DNA of 63,555 bases, filler included, from Halorussus marinus (lineage in GTDB: Archaea > Halobacteriota > Halobacteria > Halobacteriales > Haladaptataceae): NCBI RefSeq assembly GCF_004765795.1. It is 4 parts of 4 records of this genome, joined end to end, with 100 filler letters (N's around TTAATTAATTAA, not from the genome) between each part and the next. Parts side by side here need not be neighbours in the genome. Positions count along the whole stretch, not along the records: positions 55,339 to 63,555 come from NZ_SBIV01000021.1; 3 more parts are not named here. One strand, 5' to 3'. This document shows, piece by piece, positions 1-63,555 of the stretch. The first letter of the stretch is position 1. Each line of letters opens with the position of its first letter. Made by a program: the position numbers and the translations under genes. The notes under the pieces are model-generated. The model was not told the origin of the DNA and searched no databases. It was given only the letters and a program-made list of their open reading frames with translations.

Positions 1-126
1 CTTCGCCGTGCGAGCGCGGTCATGGTTTCGTGAGTTCCGCGAGATCGCGCTGATGTGTGTCGTCTATAACATCAAACGCTTCGTCAAACAGTGAATCTCT
101 CCGCCTTACAGCGATTCAACACAGCC
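1..126 (+). mobile_element. 3' end of IS5-family element (contig edge)
   Basis: Frame 2 reads FAVRARSWFREFREIALMCVVYNIKRFVKQ* (2-94), followed by terminal repeat gcgattcaacacagcc (111-126). The same sequence is at 20907-21032. Confidence 0.85.
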
Positions 127-202
127 ATTGTTAGTCAGCCTGCAGCTGTAGCTGAAAGTCGTAGCGGGCAAGGGTGGCGCGTTCGCGCCACCCGACGAAA
201 GC

Positions 203-1087
203 ATGATTCCACTCAAGACGTTCGTCTCGGAGCATCGCGCCGCGAATCTGCTGGCACAGGCTCGCTGGCGTGACGGCATCTATTGCCCACGCTGCCGTGC
301 CGAATCCGTGATTCGGCACGGCAGCTATCGGGTGTTTCAGCGATACCGCTGTAAGAATTGTGACCGCACATTCAACGATCAGACCGGCACCGTCTTCGGA
401 CACTCGGCGGTCGAACTCAGGAAGTGGTTTCTCGCCGTCTACAGATACATCCGGTTCAACACCAGTCTTCGGCAGTTAGACGTAGAACTCGATGTCTCCT
501 ACAAAACGGTGTACCGGCGCGTCCAGCGCTTCCTGCGGGCGCTGGACGCGCCTCGGCCACAACTCGAAGGACCGGTAAAAATCGACGAACTCTACGTGAA
601 AGCCGGGCTCAAAGGCCGCAAGCGCGACCGACCGTCGCGCTCGCGTGGCCTCTCCACACGCGGAAGAGGATCGTACGAACAGGACAAGTTACCCGTGTTC
701 ATTCTGGCTGATCGCGGCACCGGCGACCGCTACGTGCTACCAGCGAAAGCCGCCGACGAATCGACGATTCGACTCTTGCTTGCGAACCGCAAAGAGGAGT
801 CGCTGACCGTCTACACCGACGGCTTTCGGGCGTACGAACCGCTGGACGAGGACGACGCATTCAACCGTGAATACGTCGTCCACGGCGACGGCGAATACGT
901 CGATGGGGACGCTCACGTCAATACCTGCGAGAGCCACGGATCGCTGGCGCGATCCTGGCTCTCGCCCCATCGAGGCGTCTCCAAAGACAAGCTCACGTCG
1001 TATCTCAGAACGTTTCAACTTCGTCGTCGTGTCTACCGAAAACCAGGGGAAGAAACGCTGAAAACCATCCTTGAAACCGCACTCTAA
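203..1087 (+). CDS. IS1595-family (ISH4-like) transposase
   Basis: N-terminal CPRC/CKNC Zn ribbon; IDELY, YTDG and NTCES motifs; right IR ends at 1115 (...gccacatgagcg). Confidence 0.9.
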   Translation: MIPLKTFVSEHRAANLLAQARWRDGIYCPRCRAESVIRHGSYRVFQRYRCKNCDRTFNDQTGTVFGHSAVELRKWFLAVYRYIRFNTSLRQLDVELDVSYKTVYRRVQRFLRALDAPRPQLEGPVKIDELYVKAGLKGRKRDRPSRSRGLSTRGRGSYEQDKLPVFILADRGTGDRYVLPAKAADESTIRLLLANRKEESLTVYTDGFRAYEPLDEDDAFNREYVVHGDGEYVDGDAHVNTCESHGSLARSWLSPHRGVSKDKLTSYLRTFQLRRRVYRKPGEETLKTILETAL

Positions 1088-1161
1088 TTCACCAGCAATC
1101 TACGCCACATGAGCGTAGGTGGGATTTTCCAAGCAATCTGATTCTTCCAGACGTCTAAAGA

Positions 1162-2441
1162 ACTCAGCTTTGCACGTTAGCGTCGGCGGTTGAGTGAACG
1201 AAGAGGTGGTCGATCTCTTCCATGAGGTCATCGACGCCACGGTCATCGTTGTCTCGAACCCACGAGAGGAGATTGTACACGGTTTCTTTCAGGGAGTGTT
1301 CGAGGTTCGCTCGAAGCGATGACGCTTTCGAGCGAACCGTCCCCAAGGCGCTCGACTCAGGATCAAGACGAACGAGACTGTAGGCAGCCATCAGAAGGTG
1401 CCAGTGCCGACTGGCACCTTCGTCGGTCTGCATCTCGCAGTCTCCTAGGCCGAGATCATGCTTCGAGTCCTCGAAGAACGTCTCGATGCGCCATCGCATT
1501 CCGTAGGAGCGAATCACGTGCTCGGTTGGGGGCGTCGATTTTGTTCGTAGCGAGGTACTTGACCGGGTTCTCTTCGTCTTCGTCGGTCTCTTTCTCGGCG
1601 ATGACCAGCTTCACGTCTCCCAGCTGGGAGACGGGAAGCTTCTTCGTCCAGATGTGGTAGGTGTCGTCATCGACATCGCGCTCAACCGTGTCGATACGCT
1701 TGCAGAGCGCATCGACACGGATCTCGTCGCCACCATAGGTCACCTGTCGATTGCTCCGGAGCGGGCCGATCCAGTCCTTGTCGTAGGATTCGATGTGTTC
1801 GGGAAGGCTAGAGTCGTGAGCGAACCACGAGTCGAAGAGGTAGGTGTCCGCAGGCACACCTACCTCTTCTTCGAGTTCGGTAACGATCTCTCGGGCTAGA
1901 TCGTATTTGGTATCGTGGTCATCGTCCTCGTCGTCTTGCTGTTCGTAGAGGCGGAACGTGAGCGGATAGGCAGTTTTGTCGTCAGCGTAGAAGGCGTAGA
2001 TGAGGTCTTGGCCCCAGACAGTGTCGCCTTCAGCGTGATCGTAGAATCGGCCGACGCCGGGGACTTCGTCCCCGGCTTTCTCGGTGATCGTATCGTCGAG
2101 GATGATGTAGCCATCCTGTGACCAGCGCGTTTCACCGTGTTTCTGAAGCTCTTCGAGGCGTTCGTGGTTGAACTCCTGTTCGTCCCAGTCGTACTGGGTG
2201 AGGAACTTGTTGAGGGCGCGTTTCCCCTGAGCTGGAAGGACTTCGCGTGCGATACCCGCCACGGTCTTGTTGCTGGCCGCAACAAGACCGGTGGCGTAGG
2301 TTTTCGCGTGATGACGTTGTGCTGGTGACAGCGACTCGAACTCGTCGAACACGCGCGTACACGACAAGAAGGTCGTAATCGGCATCATCCGTCCCTGCCA
2401 CCGCCTACGTCACGCTACCACTTCAACGTGCAAAGCTGAGT
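1162..2441 (-). mobile_element. IS701-family element with frameshifted transposase (1164-2388)
   Basis: IRs actcagctttgcacgtt (1162-1178) and aacgtgcaaagctgagt (2425-2441); TSD aaaga; ILDDT, FDSWF and RWRIETFFEDSK motifs split over two frames at the G5 run 1528-1532. Confidence 0.85.
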
Positions 2442-39333: not shown

Positions 39334-39433
39334 NNNNNNNNNNNNNNNNNNNNNNNNNNNNNNNNNNNNNNNNNNNNTTAATTAATTAANNNNNNNNNNN
39401 NNNNNNNNNNNNNNNNNNNNNNNNNNNNNNNNN

Positions 39434-55238: not shown

Positions 55239-55346
55239 NNNNNNNNNNNNNNNNNNNNNNNNNNNNNNNNNNNNNNNNNNNNTTAATTAATTAANNNNNN
55301 NNNNNNNNNNNNNNNNNNNNNNNNNNNNNNNNNNNNNNGTGACGAG

Positions 55347-55910
55347 GTGGTACTGTCATGCGTAATCACCAGCGAGAAGCGCCGGCACTACCGGCAGACG
55401 CCGGTGTCGCTGGACGCGGCCGCGACGGTCCGCCGGCGGATGGCGAAGAAGTTCATCCGGCCGGCCTGTCGCGCGGGCTATCGCACGCTCCGGAAGGACG
55501 CGGGCGAGTACGTCCAGGAGGACAATCGCGTCGACGTCGAGGACGTCTCGATGTTCGCGATGCGGCCGTCGCTCCAGACGCTGAAAGACCGACAGACGGT
55601 CGCGTTGCGGAAGCTCCTCGACGGATTTGAATCCGAGGACGCACTCGACACCTGGCTCCATCACCTCGATGACGTCACGCTCGGGGAGCTCGACCGGATC
55701 GACGCGGATCTCGACTGGCGGCTGGAGATGGAGCGGACTGCTCGGGACGTGCTGCTCGGCGACCGTAGTGATCACGCCCGCCAGCGCGAGCAACTGGCGG
55801 CGTTCTACCTGCTTCCGGCGTTTTCGCTGACACCTGCGCTCCAGTTAGAGCGCGCGCAGGAGCTCCGCGAGGACCCGGACAAACAACGACTGGAGGAGAC
55901 ACAGATATGA
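55347..55910 (+). CDS. Hypothetical protein coupled to the ATPase (5' end uncertain)
   Basis: ATGA overlap with the next gene. The SD-preceded ATG at 55358 is out of frame, suggesting an indel near the contig edge. Confidence 0.6.
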   Translation: MVLSCVITSEKRRHYRQTPVSLDAAATVRRRMAKKFIRPACRAGYRTLRKDAGEYVQEDNRVDVEDVSMFAMRPSLQTLKDRQTVALRKLLDGFESEDALDTWLHHLDDVTLGELDRIDADLDWRLEMERTARDVLLGDRSDHARQREQLAAFYLLPAFSLTPALQLERAQELREDPDKQRLEETQI

Positions 55911-57055
55911 CTGCTCCCAACCCTGATAACTTACCTGACCCACACACGCAGACACGCGAGTACCGAGACGATGACCGATTGCATTCCGACGCGGACTACC
56001 TCCGCCGGAGGTTCGGGATGCGGAAGTTCGACCTCGACGCGTGGGACTACGACGATCTCGGTCCGGCGCTGTTCGACCACACATGGGACGGCGGGACAGC
56101 CCGCGTCTCCGGCGGCCCGGGGTGTTTCACGGTCGGGAAAGAAGGCTCGGGAAAGTCGACGCTGTTGCTGCGGATCGCCAGCGTCGAGATGGCACTGAAC
56201 GAGGCGCGGGTGGTCTGGTCGGCGGTGACCGGCAGCCGGTCGGAGTGGCTTCCGTTTGCGCCGGTCGCGCGGGTGTGCGTCCCGAAGGGGTACGAGCCGA
56301 CCGCTCGCCTCGTGCCGAAACAGCGATCGCGTGGCTCGCGTGGCGTCGAGGTCGATCTGGAGGACATCGTCCGAGAGGTGGTCTACTACAAAGACGTGAT
56401 GGACCTGAACCTGCGGGTTCTCCGAGACGGCCAGTTCAACGTCGTGTACCCTGATCCGAAGATGCGGGGGTGTCAGTGGGTCTACGAGGAGAGCGACCGC
56501 GTAGTCGCCGACTCATCGGACGAGGTCGAGTTCACGGCCGAGGACCCGGTGAACCACTGGTGGTTCGGCTGGGGGCTCTCGCTGGTTGAGCGCGGGCCGT
56601 GGGCGTGGACGAGCTGGATTCAGGACGAGGTCCAGAGTCTGGCGCCCGAGGGCGCGGCGAACGACAAGTACCTGACGCGGCTGAAAATCAAGATGCTCGG
56701 CGAGTCGATGGAGGACTTCCGGAAGAACGGGATCGCGCGGTACTTCGCGGGCCACAAGGACAAACACCTCCATTCGCTGTGGCGTGACCGCATCTCGTTC
56801 CGGATTCACATGAACGGGACAGCGAACCCGCGCCAGTCACGATCGTCGTCGATTCCGGTCGGAATGGAGTCGGTTCCGATGGAGGAGGACCTGATGTCCG
56901 ACGAGGACATCGGGACGGCCCTGCTCTACACCGAGAGTTCGTTCGAAAAGGTCGGGTGGCCGAACATCCCGAAGCCGATCAAGGGCGATTTGAAGGTGTA
57001 CCTCGATCCGGACGGCCGGGAGGGGGCGACCTCGACGGGAGGGGTGACGGCATGA
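55907..57055 (+). CDS. P-loop ATPase resembling the pleolipovirus conserved NTPase
   Basis: Walker A GKEGSGKST, Walker B WIQDE; RSEWLP and VVYPDP blocks recalled from haloarchaeal pleolipo-proviral ATPases. Confidence 0.65.
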   Translation: MTAPNPDNLPDPHTQTREYRDDDRLHSDADYLRRRFGMRKFDLDAWDYDDLGPALFDHTWDGGTARVSGGPGCFTVGKEGSGKSTLLLRIASVEMALNEARVVWSAVTGSRSEWLPFAPVARVCVPKGYEPTARLVPKQRSRGSRGVEVDLEDIVREVVYYKDVMDLNLRVLRDGQFNVVYPDPKMRGCQWVYEESDRVVADSSDEVEFTAEDPVNHWWFGWGLSLVERGPWAWTSWIQDEVQSLAPEGAANDKYLTRLKIKMLGESMEDFRKNGIARYFAGHKDKHLHSLWRDRISFRIHMNGTANPRQSRSSSIPVGMESVPMEEDLMSDEDIGTALLYTESSFEKVGWPNIPKPIKGDLKVYLDPDGREGATSTGGVTA

Positions 57056-57618
57056 TTGCCACCCGACCGACGTCGACGATCGGCGTGGCGACGTCGAGCG
57101 CGAGCTCGCGCTCAGATGAAAATCCGGGGGGTCGGATGCGGCGAGGAGGCGGTCCCCGGCGGAGTTCGGCCTCGATCGGGAGCAATTACGCACGCGCGCG
57201 TTTCGGATATGAACGGAATATCCCCCCCGGGGGTGCGGGCGCATTATGCGCGTCGCGAGCAGGTGCGCGGTTGCTCGCTCGGTGGCGTGGTTCGCGCGCT
57301 CGGTTCAAGGCGCGGGCGGGTGCTCGCGATGGACCGCGGCCGCGGGCGACCTCGCGCGAGCGCTCGTCTTCGCGTGGGTTTTTGAACGCGCTGGCGGGCG
57401 AGCGGTGGCGAGCGCGCGAGCGAAGGATTTCGCGGAGACGCGTCCGCGGCCGCGTCGGTGCGGACGTGACCGGAGGCGGGCAGGCGCGTCGGTGTGCGAC
57501 GGCGCGCGCGGTGCTGTGGGCGTGGTTGCCCGCGAGCGCGGTCGGCCTCGCACGGGCGGAGGATACCGCGTGCGGGGCGCTCGCTCAGGCGCGAACGGAG
57601 GTGGGCGCGGATGCGTAA
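57052..57618 (+). other. Arg/Ala/Gly-rich 188-codon ORF over palindrome-rich, CG-rich DNA
   Basis: ATGA-coupled to the ATPase and overlaps the next start; 18-bp perfect palindrome at 57096-57113. Confidence 0.4.
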
Positions 57619-60600
57619 ATCGCGAGCGCTCGCGCTTGTCGCGCTCGTCGTGATGGGTGCGCTCGTCCCCGTGTGGTCGCCCGTGGTGGTGAGCGCGGCC
57701 GAGGAGACGGGCACGTTCGCGGGCGAGGTTTCGATCGAGATGGACGCGGCGACCGACGGCTCGACGAGTCGCTACGAGCTGGCGGACGCCAGCAAGGCCG
57801 AGAACTTCTCGGTTGAATTGACCGGTCGTGAATCGACAGAACAGGAGTCGGTGTCGGGAACGGCACTCTCAGATGGCGAGATGTTGCCGGTTACCGCGGC
57901 TGGAACGAACGCCCCGACTGGGCCAGCAAACGGCCAGCCTGAAGTGACATTTATGGGGGTCGAGGAGACTCGCCAGACGTTCTGGGCCGGATCGGCCAGC
58001 GATGGCTCGACTGATTCCATCAGCGTTGGCGGGAATAAACTGCCCGTGAACTCGACCGTAACATTCACTGGGAGATCGAACACGTCGGATGCGTCATGGA
58101 CTGCGACGAGTCAATCTGACGGTGCGACGGAATCAATCTCGGTGGACGGGAATGTCGTTCCGAAGAACCAGCAGATCACATTGACAGGGCGAGAGACGGC
58201 GATGTGGGTAAATTCGAGTGGTTCGAATATTACTCCGTCATCAACGCACTCGATTATAACGGGTAATTTGCCATCGGTGGGCCCGGCAACCGGAGACCCG
58301 CAGCTCACAGTCACGGGTCATGCAACGACCCATCAACGCGCTGGTAGTCCGGAACATGGATGGCGTAATAAACCAATTCTTGGAAGTTATAGTAGTAAGC
58401 CAATTCACGGAGAACTCACGTTCAAAGACTTAGAGGGCAAGGTGTCATCAGTGTCGTTGAATGCGACGGTGGATTATGGTGATCCGAGTCAGGCGACGGT
58501 GGATATCTACATGGTCAACGAGGGACATGATCAGACGTATGGCGAGGGGACGGTGGTCAAAAGCGGGTGGACTCCGCCGTCGTCGGGTGGCGAGATAACG
58601 ATTGACCTCGACTCGACTTTTGTCGCTGACGGAGGGCGCACTACTGTCGAGTTTGTCACGACAGGTGGAGTTGATGACACCTGGAAATCGCTTAGGATCA
58701 GCTCAATGTCGGAAGCCGATGGGCGAGACAGCCTGTCGTATAAACGGGGTGGTGATACGTATACTAGCACCCTGGACCCTGATATTGAGGCGACTGTGTC
58801 GCCGACGAATGTGGCGGTCTCTGATGGTCACGGTAATTCGACGTCGTTCGGTGATCTATCTGATGGCGAATCCGTGACAAAATCGATGCCATTGGCTGCT
58901 GATGCGACCGACCTCCAGTTCTCGGGAGGAGGTGGTGCGCTCGACTACCAGTTAGTCAAACAGGACCGTTATGCGCCAGCAAACCCGACGGTCGATATCG
59001 ACGGTGATGGCTCACCAGATGCCTCGTATTCCGGCATCCTCAGTCCGGGTGAGTCAGTATCTCGGGATTTATCGTCGTTGCAAGCAGGGACACAGTCGGT
59101 GATGACCTCTGTTGATGAGGGATCAGTCGACTGGAAGATTGAGGCCGACGAGGTAACTGCGACCGAGAACCCGAAGGTCGATGTCGGGGCGGATGGGTCA
59201 ATCGATGGAACGTACGAGGGTGTTCTTCAGAGTGGCGAGACCGTGACAGTCTCACTATTAAACCTCGACAACGGGACAAATGAACTGGCATTTGCGACGA
59301 CAACCATGGGCTTCGACTGGGAGATCAACGCTGATGAGCGCAGCGTCACCGAAAACCCGCAATTGGATTTCGACGGCGACAGCACCCCCGAGGCCTCGTA
59401 CTCGGGGGTGCTTGAGCCGGGCGAAACGGTGACCCGTGGCGTCGACCTCTCGCTCGGGTCGCATGAGACAGTTGTCTCAACGCGATCGTGGTCGAGGGTC
59501 TCAGTCGCGGTCAACTATACCGAAATTTCTGAGTCGGTGAATCCAAGCGTCACTGTCAACGGCTATGAGGCCGCATTTGACGGAACCCTCGCGAAAAATG
59601 AGACCACGGAGCTGAACGTCTCGACTGCGTGGCTCGCGAACGGGACGAATACTGTCGAGGTCGGAGTCGGCGAATCGCTGTCGGCGGAGGCGCCAGCCGC
59701 GCGCGTTGGGGTCGACTACTACCATACGGCGGCGACGAGCCACTCGACAAGCTACAACAGTACGGCGTGGACCGAGGAGCGCACGATCAACAAGACGTTC
59801 GTCGACGACCAGCAGGACGCGACGCTCCAGTTGCCGTTCCACGATTCGGTAGTCAACATCAAGACATTGGAGATCGCTCGGAACGGGTCCGAGTACACCC
59901 GGATGGATTCTGCGAACTACGAGTACGATGCGGAGTCGGCGGTGGTGACGGTCAAGCTCGGCGACATGGAAGCGAACGAGTCAGTGTCGGTCCACGCGAA
60001 GGGCTGGCGGGTCAAGGTCAACGATGGCGACATCACGATCCGCGAGCCGACACTGCCGGGCGATCGGCTCGACACCGCTATCGAAGTGACCGAGAAAGGC
60101 GAGAACTTCTGGCTGGGTATCCAGAACCAGCGGATCGTCCACACATACAACGAGTCGTGGAGCCAGCCCGAGGAGTATTCGCAGGTGACCGCGGATGGCG
60201 CCCAACGAGTCCATCTCCCGAACGCTGGCGAGGGTGCGACCGCTCGGGTCGAGTACACGCCCCTGGAGGTCACTCCCGAGCGCGGGGATGCGGAGGTCCA
60301 CATCGAGGACCTCGATGCCCAACAGTTCCATCTCGACCCGGGGCGGACGAACGGGGGCCCGGTGACAATCCGGTGGCTGAATGCGGTCGAAGACAAGAGC
60401 TACGCGCTCTGGTCGGTGACCCACTCGGATACACGGACGGTTGAGAAGGCCGGCGCTGACGGCGTCGTGTTCGTCGACGATGACAGTCCGGAGACGCTCC
60501 AGATCATCGCGAGCGAGAACGCTGGCGACTCCGGCATCGGTGGGCCATTCGGGCTGGGCCAGTCGCTCCAGGGCGGACTGGTGCTCGCGCTGGTTGCGGG

Positions 60601-61162
60601 CTCGGTCGGGCTCGTTTACTGGCTCCAGCGGCGGTACGGCTCGCGTGGCTACGGCCGGCGGGACGTGCTGGTCTTGTTGACGACTGCGGGAGCGGTGACG
60701 CTGCTCGGGATGGAGATCGTGGCGCCCGGGTCGGCGTCGGGCCTGATCTCCTCGGGCACCGTCCCGATCCTGGGTGGCGCAGTGCTCGCGATCCTCGGGC
60801 TCTACTACGGCATCGACTACCTGCCGGGCGGCCGGCGGCTCAAGATCGGCTACCTCGGCGTGGGCGTGGCGTTCGTCGGTATCCTCGCGCTGGAGGTGCT
60901 GGCGCCCGGGTCGATCTCCGGGACGCTCGGGCCGGTGATCGCGGAGGCGCTCGATCCCGCGATCCGGCTCGGCGGGCTCGCCGGAGTCGGGCTCGCCACC
61001 TACGCGCTGTACCGCTGGCTGTTCGGCAACTCCAGCAGTGGCTCGGGCAGTTCGTCGTCCTCGTCTGGCGGGAGTTCCAGCGAGGACGATTCGGCGATGA
61101 CGCAGGTGATCGTCCAGGACAACGATGATAGCGTCACGACGTCGTCGGGAGGTGACGACTGA
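57611..61162 (+). CDS. 1183-aa secreted, C-terminally membrane-anchored repeat protein (adhesin/spike-like)
   Basis: Signal peptide MRKSRALALVALVV..; beta-rich repeats; DxDGDG loops; many N-x-S/T sequons; about five C-terminal TM segments; Ser-rich tail. Confidence 0.8.
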   Translation: MRKSRALALVALVVMGALVPVWSPVVVSAAEETGTFAGEVSIEMDAATDGSTSRYELADASKAENFSVELTGRESTEQESVSGTALSDGEMLPVTAAGTNAPTGPANGQPEVTFMGVEETRQTFWAGSASDGSTDSISVGGNKLPVNSTVTFTGRSNTSDASWTATSQSDGATESISVDGNVVPKNQQITLTGRETAMWVNSSGSNITPSSTHSIITGNLPSVGPATGDPQLTVTGHATTHQRAGSPEHGWRNKPILGSYSSKPIHGELTFKDLEGKVSSVSLNATVDYGDPSQATVDIYMVNEGHDQTYGEGTVVKSGWTPPSSGGEITIDLDSTFVADGGRTTVEFVTTGGVDDTWKSLRISSMSEADGRDSLSYKRGGDTYTSTLDPDIEATVSPTNVAVSDGHGNSTSFGDLSDGESVTKSMPLAADATDLQFSGGGGALDYQLVKQDRYAPANPTVDIDGDGSPDASYSGILSPGESVSRDLSSLQAGTQSVMTSVDEGSVDWKIEADEVTATENPKVDVGADGSIDGTYEGVLQSGETVTVSLLNLDNGTNELAFATTTMGFDWEINADERSVTENPQLDFDGDSTPEASYSGVLEPGETVTRGVDLSLGSHETVVSTRSWSRVSVAVNYTEISESVNPSVTVNGYEAAFDGTLAKNETTELNVSTAWLANGTNTVEVGVGESLSAEAPAARVGVDYYHTAATSHSTSYNSTAWTEERTINKTFVDDQQDATLQLPFHDSVVNIKTLEIARNGSEYTRMDSANYEYDAESAVVTVKLGDMEANESVSVHAKGWRVKVNDGDITIREPTLPGDRLDTAIEVTEKGENFWLGIQNQRIVHTYNESWSQPEEYSQVTADGAQRVHLPNAGEGATARVEYTPLEVTPERGDAEVHIEDLDAQQFHLDPGRTNGGPVTIRWLNAVEDKSYALWSVTHSDTRTVEKAGADGVVFVDDDSPETLQIIASENAGDSGIGGPFGLGQSLQGGLVLALVAGSVGLVYWLQRRYGSRGYGRRDVLVLLTTAGAVTLLGMEIVAPGSASGLISSGTVPILGGAVLAILGLYYGIDYLPGGRRLKIGYLGVGVAFVGILALEVLAPGSISGTLGPVIAEALDPAIRLGGLAGVGLATYALYRWLFGNSSSGSGSSSSSSGGSSSEDDSAMTQVIVQDNDDSVTTSSGGDD

Positions 61163-61494
61163 TGCCCGCGGACGTGTTCGTGGTGCTGCGCGAGGCGGTC
61201 GGTCAGGTCCTGGCGACGCTCGGACTGAAAGGCATGATCGGGGCGAGCGCGGTCGTCTCGACACTGACGCTGTTCTGGTGGGGCTACCGGCTCTCGTCGG
61301 TGGTGGCGTTCCTGCGGACAGCAAGCACGGTCGCCGTTCGGTACGGAGCGGTGTCGGTGGCCGTGCTGGCGGTCGCACTCGCCGGGGCGCTCCACGCGGG
61401 GGTCATCCCGGGCGTGAATATCGCGCCAATCTACGACCTGCTGGACGTCCTGGTCGAGACGGTCTCGCCGAGCGGTGGAGGTGGGATACTGTGA
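61162..61494 (+). CDS. Small integral membrane protein
   Basis: TGATG coupling; SD ggaggtga; mostly hydrophobic 110 aa. Confidence 0.7.
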   Translation: MPADVFVVLREAVGQVLATLGLKGMIGASAVVSTLTLFWWGYRLSSVVAFLRTASTVAVRYGAVSVAVLAVALAGALHAGVIPGVNIAPIYDLLDVLVETVSPSGGGGIL

Positions 61495-62180
61495 GCGACG
61501 CGACCCTCGACACGTTTACCGCCGACGACGACGGCGACGACGTCGAGGATGACTCGGGGAGCCGGAGTCGCGTCGACGAGCTGCGCACCGAGTACGAGCC
61601 CCGCATCCGGTCGGGGCTTGCGAGCCTTCGCGACGAGATCGAGACGCGGGCCGGGCAGGCACGCGAGACGTGGCGCGCTGAGTACGAGCCCCGCATCCGG
61701 GCGGCCCTTAGCGACGCCGAGGACTGGCTCGACGAGCGGTACGCCGACGCGAGCGAACGCCGGACGCGGTTCTATCAGGGACTGGTCGCGCTGGGGCTGG
61801 TGGTGGCGTGGACGGTCGGGAAACCGGCCATCTACGGCTGGCTCGATACTGTTGCGGTCATCGTGACGGTCGGGCCGTTCCTCTGGTTCGCGACCGAGTC
61901 AGAGATGTGGTCGCGACTGGCCGAGCTTACGGCGCTGATCGCGGTGAGCCTGCTGGCCGCGATCCTCGCAAAGGCGACTATCTTTCCGTGGCGCTCAGTC
62001 GAGGCGTTCGTCACCGAGACCGTCGTCGGGCGAGCGATCGGTGTGACGTTCGGAACGGCCGTCAACGCGGCGCTCGCGCTGTTCGGGGCGGCGGCGCTGT
62101 TCTGGCTGTTGAAGGCCTACGAGTACCGCCGGACGAGTCCCGAGGACCGCGTGCTGACCGACGGGAGTGGTGAGCAGTGA
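61491..62180 (+). CDS. Membrane protein with acidic/helical N-terminus and about four TM segments
   Basis: GTGA-coupled; duplicated EYEPRIR (21-bp direct repeat at 61590 and 61680). Confidence 0.7.
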   Translation: MSDATLDTFTADDDGDDVEDDSGSRSRVDELRTEYEPRIRSGLASLRDEIETRAGQARETWRAEYEPRIRAALSDAEDWLDERYADASERRTRFYQGLVALGLVVAWTVGKPAIYGWLDTVAVIVTVGPFLWFATESEMWSRLAELTALIAVSLLAAILAKATIFPWRSVEAFVTETVVGRAIGVTFGTAVNAALALFGAAALFWLLKAYEYRRTSPEDRVLTDGSGEQ

Positions 62181-63555
62181 GCCAGACGGTCCAGCCCGAG
62201 GACGTCGACGAATCGCTCCCGAAGCCAGTGCTGTCGGTCGGAGACGAGCGCGCGGAGCATCTCGGGGAGACCATCACGGTCCGCGGGCAGGTCGTGAAGC
62301 GGTCGAGCGTCCGGCCGAAGGTGACCACGGCCGCGTTTGAATGCCGTCGGTGCGGGCACCTGGAGCGCATCGAGCAGGGGTACGGCGACATCGACCAGCC
62401 GGCAGTCTGCCCGGGCTGTGAACTCAAGCGGGTGCGGTGGCGATTCCGAAAGGACTGCTCGGAGTGGACGGACTTCCAGAAGCTCCGGCTCCAGCAGTTG
62501 CCCGAGGAGATGACCAACGGTGAGACGGAGTCGATGGACGTCTTCTTGACTGACGAGCTCGCACGCCGCGGGCTCGAAAGCGGGCGGTGCGTCTCGCTGA
62601 TCGCGGAGTACCTCCCGCTCCAGGATGGCGGGTCGACGGTGTTCGACAAGGCGTTCGACGCCGAGGATGTCCTCGTCGAGGACACCGATCCGGGGGAGTT
62701 CGACGTCGAGCCGTACCGGGAGGTCATCGACGCGGTCGCGAGCCGCGACGACCCGGTGGACGTGCTGGTTGAGTCGGTCGCACCGAGCCATCTCGGCGAT
62801 CGTCACATCAAGGAGGCGCTGATCTGCCAGCTGGTTAGGGCGAATGCCCCGACGGGCGCCGACGGGAAGGACTACCGTGGGCAGATTCACATGTTCCTGC
62901 TGGGTGACCCGGGCGCGGGCAAGACCGACTTCGGGGAGGCGCTGGTGCGGCTCGCGCCGCGTTCGCAGAAGTCGAGCGGGAACGAGGGGACGTCGGCGGC
63001 CGGATTGACGGCGGCGATCACTCGCGACGATTTCTCGAACGCGGAGTTCACGGTGACGGCCGGCGCGATCCCAAAATGTTCGGGCGGGGCGCTGTTCCTG
63101 GACGAGCTCGACAGCGCTGGCGATCAGGAGCAGAACGCGCTGCTGGAGGCGATGGAGTCGGGCGTAATCAACATCGAGAAGGCCGGGCAGAAGGCGACGC
63201 TGGAGGCCGAGACGGCGATCCTCGCGGCGGGGAACCCCGAGAATGGTCACTTCGATCCGGAGCGGTCGCCCGCGGAGCAGACGAACGTGCTGTCACCGCT
63301 GCTCGACCGGTTCGACCTGATCTTCTGTCCCGAGGAGAAGACCGATCCGGACGCGGTCGAGGCGATCGCGGACCACATCACCGCTGGACGTGACGCTGCG
63401 CAACGCCGGGAGATCGACAAGAACGTCCCCGAGTCGGCGGACGCGGTTGAGCCGGAGCTGTCGACCGAGGAACTCCGGGCGTACTTGGCGGCGGCGCGGG
63501 AGAAACGGCCGGTGTTCGGGAGCGACGAGGTACGCCAGACGCTCCGGGACTGGTA
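62177..63555 (+). CDS. mcm: MCM helicase (runs off window; absent from the ORF track)
   Basis: Own translation: VRGQVVKRSSVRPK, ECRRCG..CPGC Zn finger, DFQKLRLQQLPE, RGQIHMFLLGDPGAGKT, SAAGLTAA, FLDELD, LLEAME..IEKAG, AAGNP, LLDRFDL. Confidence 0.93.
   Translation, partial: MSQTVQPEDVDESLPKPVLSVGDERAEHLGETITVRGQVVKRSSVRPKVTTAAFECRRCGHLERIEQGYGDIDQPAVCPGCELKRVRWRFRKDCSEWTDFQKLRLQQLPEEMTNGETESMDVFLTDELARRGLESGRCVSLIAEYLPLQDGGSTVFDKAFDAEDVLVEDTDPGEFDVEPYREVIDAVASRDDPVDVLVESVAPSHLGDRHIKEALICQLVRANAPTGADGKDYRGQIHMFLLGDPGAGKTDFGEALVRLAPRSQKSSGNEGTSAAGLTAAITRDDFSNAEFTVTAGAIPKCSGGALFLDELDSAGDQEQNALLEAMESGVINIEKAGQKATLEAETAILAAGNPENGHFDPERSPAEQTNVLSPLLDRFDLIFCPEEKTDPDAVEAIADHITAGRDAAQRREIDKNVPESADAVEPELSTEELRAYLAAAREKRPVFGSDEVRQTLRDW

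Follow-up and report, generated by a model that had tools for sequence, protein, structure and literature searches.

The 1183-aa protein encoded by the ORF at 57611-61162 (+) of the Halorussus marinus window (the whole stretch of DNA analysed, 63,555 nucleotides) carries two sets of repeats on either side of a unique segment. The questions raised by this locus are whether the two sets fold together into a single out-and-back stalk, and what kind of genetic element carries such a protein. The window consists of four contigs joined by N spacers, and the genes left of 55239 were therefore set aside (ParA, DUF5817 Rep and toxin-antitoxin genes, dropped as context of the stalk gene).

Organisation of the stalk gene and its protein

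The features of the contig carrying the gene (A, outgoing halves; B, returning halves) are the following:

55347-55910 (+): conserved soluble operon gene (cluster 4; HMM E 1e-43), 5' part lost at the contig start; present in 50/60 loci
55907-57055 (+): P-loop ATPase, homologue of PAV1 ORF375 (tblastn E 3e-11, 25%; phrog_22963)
57611-57697 (+): signal peptide, aa 1-29, putatively cleaved; basic N-terminus, hydrophobic aa 9-27, model helix 5-17
57704-57826 (+): A1, aa 32-72, pairs with B5; A1 profile 52 bits; model range 31..707
57827-57958 (+): A2, aa 73-116, pairs with B4; 41 bits
57959-58072 (+): A3, aa 117-154, pairs with B3; 33 bits
58073-58189 (+): A4, aa 155-193, pairs with B2; 38 bits
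58190-58318 (+): A5, aa 194-236, pairs with B1; 18 bits
58319-58798 (+): apical tip domain, aa 237-396, predicted beta-sandwich, weakly CBM/lectin-like, exchangeable
58799-59731 (+): B1-B5 (aa 397-455, 456-517, 518-579, 580-641, 642-707); 42-70 bits, couplings to the A halves
59732-60514 (+): conserved pedestal, about three beta domains, aa ~708-968; all-beta in the model, family anchor
60563-61024 (+): membrane anchor, about five helices, aa ~985-1138; hydropathy, model helices of low pLDDT
61162-61494 (+): small membrane protein 3' of the stalk gene; cluster 8 HMM E 2e-5, position conserved
62177-63555 (+): MCM helicase of the element, running off the contig; Pfam MCM E 7e-58

The arrangement proposed by the sequence-only reading, five repeats of each type (A and B) on either side of a central tip, was recovered by motif positions and by profile HMM scores. 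The A-strand motifs start at aa 66, 110, 148, 187 and 230, and their spacings (44, 38, 39 and 43 aa) do not all fall within the 40-47 aa originally proposed. The B motifs start at aa 397, 456, 518, 580 and 642, the spacings of 59, 62, 62 and 62 aa agreeing with the anticipated ~60 aa, and each B unit contains the expected GE[ST]V or a close variant (at 419, 480, 542 and 604, with a variant in the fifth unit); the unique segment of ~160 aa between the halves corresponds to the tip, which measures 160 aa. The scores of the profile HMMs built from the family were 18-41 bits for A2-A5 and 42-70 bits for B1-B5, compared with best scores of 11.1 and 10.0 for reversed sequences; A1 constitutes a subtype that requires a separate profile (52 bits, against a maximum of 13.3 in the reversed null). 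Divergence among the repeats is too great for self-BLAST, with zero internal matches in the 1183-aa protein. The stalk protein had no family above threshold in Pfam or PHROGs, no usable match in the ESM Atlas and no meaningful match in whole-model Foldseek (TM ≤0.08), and nothing significant was obtained in PDB-sequence profile searches for the stalk family, cluster 6 or cluster 1 (both encoded in the same operon, see below).

Beyond what had been described from the sequence, the protein contains three C-terminal beta domains (aa ~708-968) and a multi-helix membrane anchor (aa ~985-1138), beyond which lies a Ser-rich acidic tail. The pedestal was the anchor used to define the stalk family; its first domain is CNA/MSCRAMM-N-domain- or mu-homology-like (model range 710..801, Z 7-8), and an A1 strand (aa ~53-57) is lent to it (model range 53..801). 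Both termini had been expected at the membrane: the N-terminus, from which the signal peptide is probably cleaved, does come back to the base of the stalk, but a 260-aa pedestal separates this base from the anchor.

Pairing of the outgoing and returning halves

The numbers of A and B repeats were counted in 188 non-redundant homologues (range 1-7), and they co-vary, as expected if the halves belong together: they are equal in 165/188 (Spearman 0.96, permutation maximum 68) and differ by no more than one in all 188. The 23 homologues with counts off by one are tentatively attributed to missed divergent tip-side units. The association persists in independent contrasts (r=0.90); parsimony gives 79 changes in the A count and 79 in the B count, and in the 17 sister pairs differing by at least two units, A and B always shift in the same direction (17/17). 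Tip length is unrelated to repeat number (rho -0.08).

The anti-diagonal pairing (A1-B5 to A5-B1) put forward in the sequence-only reading was supported by similarity mirroring and residue couplings, and by the composite domains predicted by AlphaFold. Within-protein similarity of the internal units follows the mirror order (rho 0.565, versus 0.064 for the parallel order; 112 pairs), as does the Mantel statistic (0.505 versus 0.189; null 0.22 ± 0.04, maximum 0.325). Mean-field analysis of 373 pooled unit pairs, a pool that includes related sequences, yielded 11 A-B couplings with z>5 for the mirror pairing, several of them in antiparallel register, and none for the parallel or the shuffled pairings (9/0/0 for n≥3).

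Each of the five mirror pairs in the AlphaFold model is spanned by an alignment to a single solved domain: A2-B4 (101 residues of model range 74..641 aligned to one domain at Z 7.9, rmsd 3.2), A3-B3 (120..577, Z 8.2, 96 aligned, rmsd 2.5; and 122..576), A4-B2 (159..517, Z 8.2, 91 aligned, rmsd 2.1; and 157..516) and A5-B1 (196..451 and 195..454, Z 7.6-8.0), besides the A1-B5 range listed above. This pairing was read from the aligned residue ranges, not from coordinates or a contact map. The pLDDT over the repeats is mostly 85-95; global pTM is 0.38, so the model does not fix domain orientation or rigidity. Each composite A-B domain, as modelled, resembles a jelly-roll/CUB sandwich, to which the A half would contribute three strands and the mirror B half five, so that the next domain would sit inside a loop of the one below; this nesting would continue up to the tip, the whole stalk standing on the three-domain pedestal and the multi-helix anchor. 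A relaxed DxDxDG-type motif is found in 150/209 internal B units, 20/164 tip-side units, 0/165 basal units and 11/1320 pedestal windows (in the 1183-aa protein, in B2-B4), and these loops may stiffen the stalk by binding Ca2+.

Tip exchange and comparison with known stalks

The tips of the family fall into about 35 clusters, and that of the 1183-aa protein belongs to the largest (112/165). Its model (range 234-399) matches CBM/lectin folds weakly (Z 6.8-7.1, rmsd 4.1-4.8, pLDDT low in parts), some tips of other homologues being propeller-like or FG-GAP-like; binding of host surface glycans by the tip is likely. The identity of close relatives drops symmetrically toward the tip. In a same-genome paralogue the profile is V-shaped, being 93, 98, 82, 59 and 49% for A1-A5, lowest at the tip (32%), then 38, 50, 58, 89 and 80% for B1-B5 and 91% for the pedestal; in 37 close pairs, which include related sequences, identity averages 75/72% for the base level and falls to 43/40% by level 5 and to 27% in the tip. 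Repeat number, and with it stalk length, ranges over 1-7 levels and differs even between sisters, a variation seen between elements and not within a population. Reach and specificity have likely been changed when related elements recombined through two crossovers: with the first in an A repeat and the second in the B repeat that pairs with it, everything nested between them would be exchanged as a unit, and this would be the only simple event keeping the A and B numbers equal.

The composite domains align to both CUB halves flanking the thioester domain (for example, 91 residues aligned over chain range 909..1332 at Z 7.9, rmsd 2.9). The split CUB of the thioester proteins (alpha-2-macroglobulin, CD109, complement C3-C5, TEP1) is a single fixed nesting, whereas there are 1-7 here; identity to CUB is 6-16% and Z about 8, the level of a common fold, and therefore no homology is claimed. 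Pfam CUB matched neither the 1183-aa protein nor four homologues. In streptococcal antigen I/II and GbpC, too, N-half and C-half repeats run out and back as a stalk whose two ends lie near the cell and whose apex is a variable ligand-binding domain, but their stalk is an alpha helix wound with a polyproline helix, whereas the stalk described here is predicted to consist of complete beta-sandwich domains made from both halves, in a number that varies between relatives. Domains inserted in domains, with a variable domain outermost, are known in influenza-type haemagglutinin-esterase and in bacterial flagellin/hook proteins, as fixed numbers of unrelated domains and not as a repeated unit with coupled copy number. 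In periscope proteins and fibrillar adhesins, according to the accessible part of PMC9704523, repeat number sets the length of a stalk projecting a functional domain, as in the stalk protein; those repeats are near-identical, individually folding tandem domains with a terminal head, in contrast to the divergent, discontinuous half-domains and central head found here. The searches found no counterpart of this telescoping-stack repeat design, and in the literature, covered mostly through papers outside subscription, no description of the stalk protein or of the element family was found.

Nature of the elements carrying the stalk gene

The stalk operon is conserved and present in 68/401 Halobacteria genomes. 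The elements carrying it are often 21-35 kb and integrated at tRNA genes, with att repeats and an integrase in 17/20 loci tested (an att pair was looked for in the Halorussus marinus copy and not found), and one 16.5-kb contig carries the module in permuted order together with Rep. The ATPase gene is present in 52/60 loci, MCM in 19/60, and Rep-Arvir or MCM in 46/60. Several small membrane proteins of 2-4 helices each are encoded in the operon, together with cluster 1, a polytopic partner with 5-6 hydrophobic segments (matching only unnamed archaeal clusters in the ESM Atlas), and cluster 6, a second anchored protein, of spike size, with a CBM fold (Z 11.9, rmsd 2.6, 144 aligned), the CBM matches covering aa ~95-292 of its model and barely the other half. 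The reading of cluster 6 as a pleolipovirus fusogen was not supported, no fusogen being present among the fold matches listed. Cluster 3 has two hydrophobic segments in 55/83 members, fitting the profile of a helical-hairpin major capsid protein, with no sequence match to the capsid proteins of PAV1, His1 or TPV1.

The closest virus found was PAV1. In tblastn of four operon proteins against GenBank phages it was the only virus found and the ATPase's only match, no relative of the stalk protein being present; the ATPase family HMM reaches E 1e-28 against it. Rep-Arvir/DUF7845 is common to the elements and PAV1 (E 4e-47). The elements thus share with PAV1 and the proposed 'Osirisviridae' an ORF375-type ATPase and a Rep-Arvir/MCM replication locus. 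According to the part of PMC12934983 available, the core genes of Thermococcales spindle-shaped viruses include two membrane-anchored lectin proteins, one highly variable (ConA2 in 'Osirisviridae'), a possible likeness to the two anchored proteins found here, one conserved and one variable, for which carbohydrate-binding-type folds are predicted; that part does not mention a nested stalk. The elements differ from PAV1 in showing no sequence similarity to ORF676, ORF678, ORF898 or ORF121, and in having haloarchaeal hosts. ORF898, proposed as the stalk orthologue from its position 3' of the ATPase, was discarded, having no similarity to the stalk family.

Other viruses gave less. The small-membrane-protein profiles reached at best E about 0.02-0.04 against PAV1, LSV-48N, His1, TPV1 and HRPV-3, none convincing, and no capsid protein of the elements was identified by these comparisons; of the Pleolipoviridae core homologues sought (spike/fusogen, matrix protein, ORF6-like and NTPase) none was found, the operon profiles matching only the Rep of HRPV-3. 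IMG/VR pattern scans, of low sensitivity for so divergent a family, confirmed no relative. LSV-48N and Tebi-SV1 (proposed Almyrocitroviridae) are described in the accessible parts of PMC12714723 and PMC13612827 as spindle-shaped viruses of haloarchaea that integrate and measure about 25 kb. Tebi-SV1 VP29 is described there as a large membrane protein, Ig-like and bearing a domain that binds sugar, which the stalk protein may resemble. Grouping with LSV-48N was rejected by sequence, only Rep (Rep-Arvir) and integrase being clearly shared with it; there was no convincing match to the A, B, pedestal or other operon profiles (best scores, E 5e-4 for the ATPase profile and E 0.005 for the A profile, the latter on an unrelated 150-aa ORF).

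We favour, as the probable explanation, a nested stalk of five predicted jelly-roll-like domains acting as the receptor-binding spike of an enveloped temperate haloarchaeal virus, of a family apparently undescribed and known here from genes alone. The fuller version is about evenly balanced between right and wrong: a telescoping stack of jelly-roll domains, each inserted in a loop of the one before, in which exchange of nested cassettes adjusts height and tip jointly, and which would serve as the spike of an undescribed, PAV1-related family of enveloped viruses present in roughly one haloarchaeal species out of six.

The same nested stalk could instead be displayed on the host cell as an adhesin for cell contact, encoded by an integrative or plasmid element that is not viral, moves through cell-cell bridges or vesicles and uses the ATPase to pump DNA. 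The presence of homologues on named plasmids (among them pNG300 of Haloarcula marismortui, which has ParA), the lack of a capsid protein detected by the operon profiles, and a five-helix anchor and polytopic cluster 1 that also suit a cell-membrane machine speak for it; however, the ATPase matches only PAV1 among phage records, the cluster representatives scanned have no Pfam match to VirB4, TraG or relaxase, and the 16-35 kb size, tRNA integration and Rep-Arvir/MCM swap are as in known archaeal proviruses, making this reading unlikely. It is less probable still that the element is a provirus whose protein stays on the lysogen surface (superinfection exclusion, aggregation, biofilm) and not on the virion: the hypervariable tip and the two divergent versions in one genome would suit this, and provirus-encoded surface proteins modulating host interactions are discussed in the accessible part of PMC13612827, but the gene lies beside the ATPase within the conserved operon in nearly all loci and is not accessory. 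That A and B are independent tandem arrays, equal in number through shared ancestry or a length constraint and forming no composite domains, is highly improbable: the off-by-one counts, a unit-length correlation that does not tell the pairings apart (mirror 0.34, parallel 0.28) and a fold known from prediction are compatible with it, but the counts shift together across 79 inferred changes, the couplings appear only for the mirror pairing and the AlphaFold model shows composite domains.

Repeat stalks normally lengthen by tandem duplication of whole domains. In the nested stalk favoured here, lengthening by one domain requires a pair of matching insertions separated by hundreds of codons, and yet the A and B counts have repeatedly changed together, so that the recurrent insertion of nested domains becomes an evolutionary mechanism open to direct test. 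The design tethers a variable head at both ends, at an adjustable distance from the membrane, a reach that would suit the crossing of glycosylated S-layers of differing thickness, and the stalk offers a natural display scaffold. The stalk gene also marks a common, apparently uncharacterised family of haloarchaeal mobile elements.

Layout and predicted fold of the stalk protein

The only true genomic context of the stalk gene is 55339-63555 (contig C21). The features used in this analysis are listed below.

Features of the stalk protein and its surroundings (window coordinates, or residues where aa is given).
57611-61162, + strand: stalk protein ORF, 1183 aa
aa 66, 110, 148, 187 and 230: A motifs (sequence inspection)
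aa 397, 456, 518, 580 and 642: B motifs (sequence inspection)
160 aa between the A and B arrays: tip segment
20807-20906, 39334-39433 and 55239-55338: artificial N spacers joining contigs C17, C18, C19 and C21

The sequence-only reading had described five A and five B repeats around a central segment, and the motif positions and family-profile scores agree on this layout; the profiles score the repeats far over reversed-sequence controls, and self-BLAST of the protein did not detect them. Hydropathy and the model indicated a signal peptide at the N-terminus and, towards the C-terminus, about five hydrophobic helices; about 260 aa more of beta structure, absent from the earlier account, lie between B5 and the anchor.

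The AlphaFold2 model, built with 32 five-level sequences, had a mean pLDDT of 74 (repeats mostly 85-95, tip blocks 46-86) and a pTM of 0.38. Composite domains were judged from the model residue ranges covered by a single solved domain in structural alignments (31..707, 120..577, 159..517, 196..451, 74..641, 157..516, 195..454), which correspond to the pairs A1-B5, A2-B4, A3-B3, A4-B2 and A5-B1. The solved domains were CBM6, PNGase F, XepA and the CUB domain of alpha-2-macroglobulin/complement proteins, at Z values of 7-8 (common-fold level); this CUB domain is likewise split by an inserted domain, according to PMC3464232. The first pedestal domain is completed by an A1 strand (model range 53..801), so that the mature N-terminus would be clamped at the base.

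Pairing and copy number of the A and B units

Internal units from 62 proteins having at least four levels were compared. A-unit similarity followed that of the mirror B unit (rho 0.565, 112 pairs; parallel 0.064), and the Mantel r across proteins was 0.505 for the mirror and 0.189 for the parallel order, with a within-protein shuffle null of 0.22 ± 0.04. Unit length alone did not separate mirror (0.34) from parallel (0.28). In a mean-field analysis pooling 373 unit pairs, the mirror order yielded 11 A-B couplings at z>5, against none for the parallel order and none after shuffling; together with the composite domains across all five pairs of the model, these couplings support the anti-diagonal pairing (A1-B5 ... 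A5-B1) anticipated from the sequence. The strongest couplings paired the first A with the last B strand (antiparallel register), A strand 2 with B strand 4 and A strand 3 with B strand 3, suggesting a jelly-roll topology in which the next level would be inserted past the third strand.

The start set of 217 sequences was reduced to 198 (4 without pedestal anchor, 12 without A1 and 3 starting at A1 were removed) and, after redundancy removal, to 188, in which A and B units were chained with separate profiles. The two numbers, whose joint variation had been proposed as a check, did vary together: they were equal in 165/188 proteins and differed by at most one in all 188 (Spearman 0.956), in a set ranked by a 5:5-dominated profile that may favour long members and cannot force equality. 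Permuted counts were equal in a mean of 49 and a maximum of 68 proteins. The equal classes were 1:1 (1), 2:2 (70), 3:3 (32), 4:4 (22), 5:5 (30), 6:6 (7) and 7:7 (3), and tip length showed no relation to repeat count. On the pedestal tree, independent contrasts gave r=0.90 and parsimony 79 changes for each count; 17 of the 60 sister pairs differed by at least two, A and B shifting in the same direction in all 17. A nested architecture is strongly supported by prediction and statistics, and we consider it almost certain.

Inspection by eye of two family members (P0005, aa 168-210 and 421-495; P0036, aa 330-365 and 874-940) showed an internal B unit of the basal (B-last) subtype in the exact mirror position of an A unit that is itself atypical and resembles the basal one; it looks as though an entire basal level had been re-inserted.

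Spread of the family and exchange of tips

A word-indexed search returned 8 relatives. Out of 1.84 billion representatives, a profile of 8 sequences matched 533 at E<=0.001, of which 452 reached E<=1e-10; the best 150 were taken for analysis. The profile matched 68/401 Halobacteria genomes; a second profile matched 12/301 phylum-wide genomes, and none of 254 genomes in families beyond those found at class level. Sixty loci were fetched from the other 67 matching genomes, 55 of which were covered. In 166/188 homologues A1 begins at residue 90 or later, leaving N-terminal room that could hold an additional domain without counterpart in the window's protein. One homologue (L039:8031-11809) is broken inside the last B unit, giving separate ORFs of 809 and 458 aa. 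In P0062 (2679 aa), at least 13 A-type and at least 15 B-type matches flank a centre of about 390 aa, beside a carboxypeptidase-regulatory-like domain; because this protein lacks the pedestal anchor, the nested module may also serve in proteins of a different kind.

The tips of the 165 equal-count proteins fell into 35 clusters, the largest (112) including the window protein's tip, which weakly resembles CBM/lectin folds (Z 6.8-7.1); further types include propeller-like and FG-GAP-like repeats, and the tip cluster differs within 24/49 sister pairs. The same genome carries a second stalk copy (contig C22), whose identity to the first is 93, 98, 82, 59 and 49 upward along the A arm, 32 in the tip, 38, 50, 58, 89 and 80 downward along the B arm and 91 in the pedestal. 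The DNA alignment of both copies is interrupted between 58035 and 59129 (aa 142 to 507), and the same V-shaped identity was found in 37 close, non-independent pairs. A nested central cassette exchanged through two crossovers would account at once for the swapped tips, the changes in level number and the equality of A and B; the V shape alone could also come from a selection gradient toward the tip.

Operon, element and probable role

The conserved operon comprises an anchored protein of about 500 aa (cluster 6, 49/60 loci), several small membrane proteins, a polytopic protein of about 600 aa (58/60), a soluble protein (50/60), an ATPase (52/60), the stalk gene and a small membrane protein, as counted in 20-kb windows where some loci are incomplete. 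Rep-Arvir/DUF7845 (designation following PMC13107129) was found in 39/60 loci and MCM in 19/60, one or the other in 46/60. A tRNA 3'-end repeat (13-24 nt) lies 21.5-34.6 kb off, with an integrase adjoining, in 17 of 20 loci picked for a nearby tRNA. No att pair was found for the window genome's own element, whose other operon genes lie on small collapsed contigs linked through end overlaps; a repeat of about 126 nt is common to the ends of many contigs. The 16.5-kb contig G291:C4 (L119) carries a circularly permuted operon and Rep-Arvir, without integrase match or visible terminal repeat, and resembles a minimal circular version of the element, near PAV1 in size. Plasmid pNG300 bears most of the module, with no cluster 6 match.

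The ATPase gene and the stalk gene are separated by 555 nt (57056-57610) of G-skewed DNA with 74% GC and no credible ORF; in relatives this junction ranges from overlap up to 556 nt, often about 170-220 nt. On a contig separate from the stalk gene (C19, 47408-54454) lie genes for a DUF5817 protein, an HTH-PIN pair, and ParA with its partner; DUF5817 and ParA genes are also on pNG300.

Stalks that run out and back, and single nested insertions, are already known (antigen I/II, flagellin, haemagglutinin). CUB/TED is one such single insertion (PMC3464232). Tebi-SV1 VP29 aside, the literature searched contained no account of a nested domain stack that is repeated with coupled copy numbers, and none of this element family.

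The operon ATPase is homologous to PAV1 ORF375. The cluster 6 protein has a CBM-fold domain (Z 11.9), which at L058:17656-19146 (aa ~100-270) is flanked on both sides by beta-rich parts, and in its predicted structure this second anchored protein also appears nested. The CBM fold of cluster 6 is reminiscent of the pair of anchored lectins, one of them variable, that Thermococcales spindle-shaped viruses carry (PMC12934983). Operon profiles detected no capsid homologue for the element against the compared viruses, and the structural module had no match in LSV-48N, His1, TPV1 or HRPV-3. The most likely function of the stalk, and a reasonably probable one, is as the spike of an enveloped, probably PAV1-like temperate virus; a role in cell contact, as the adhesin of a non-viral element, ranks second and seems rather unlikely.
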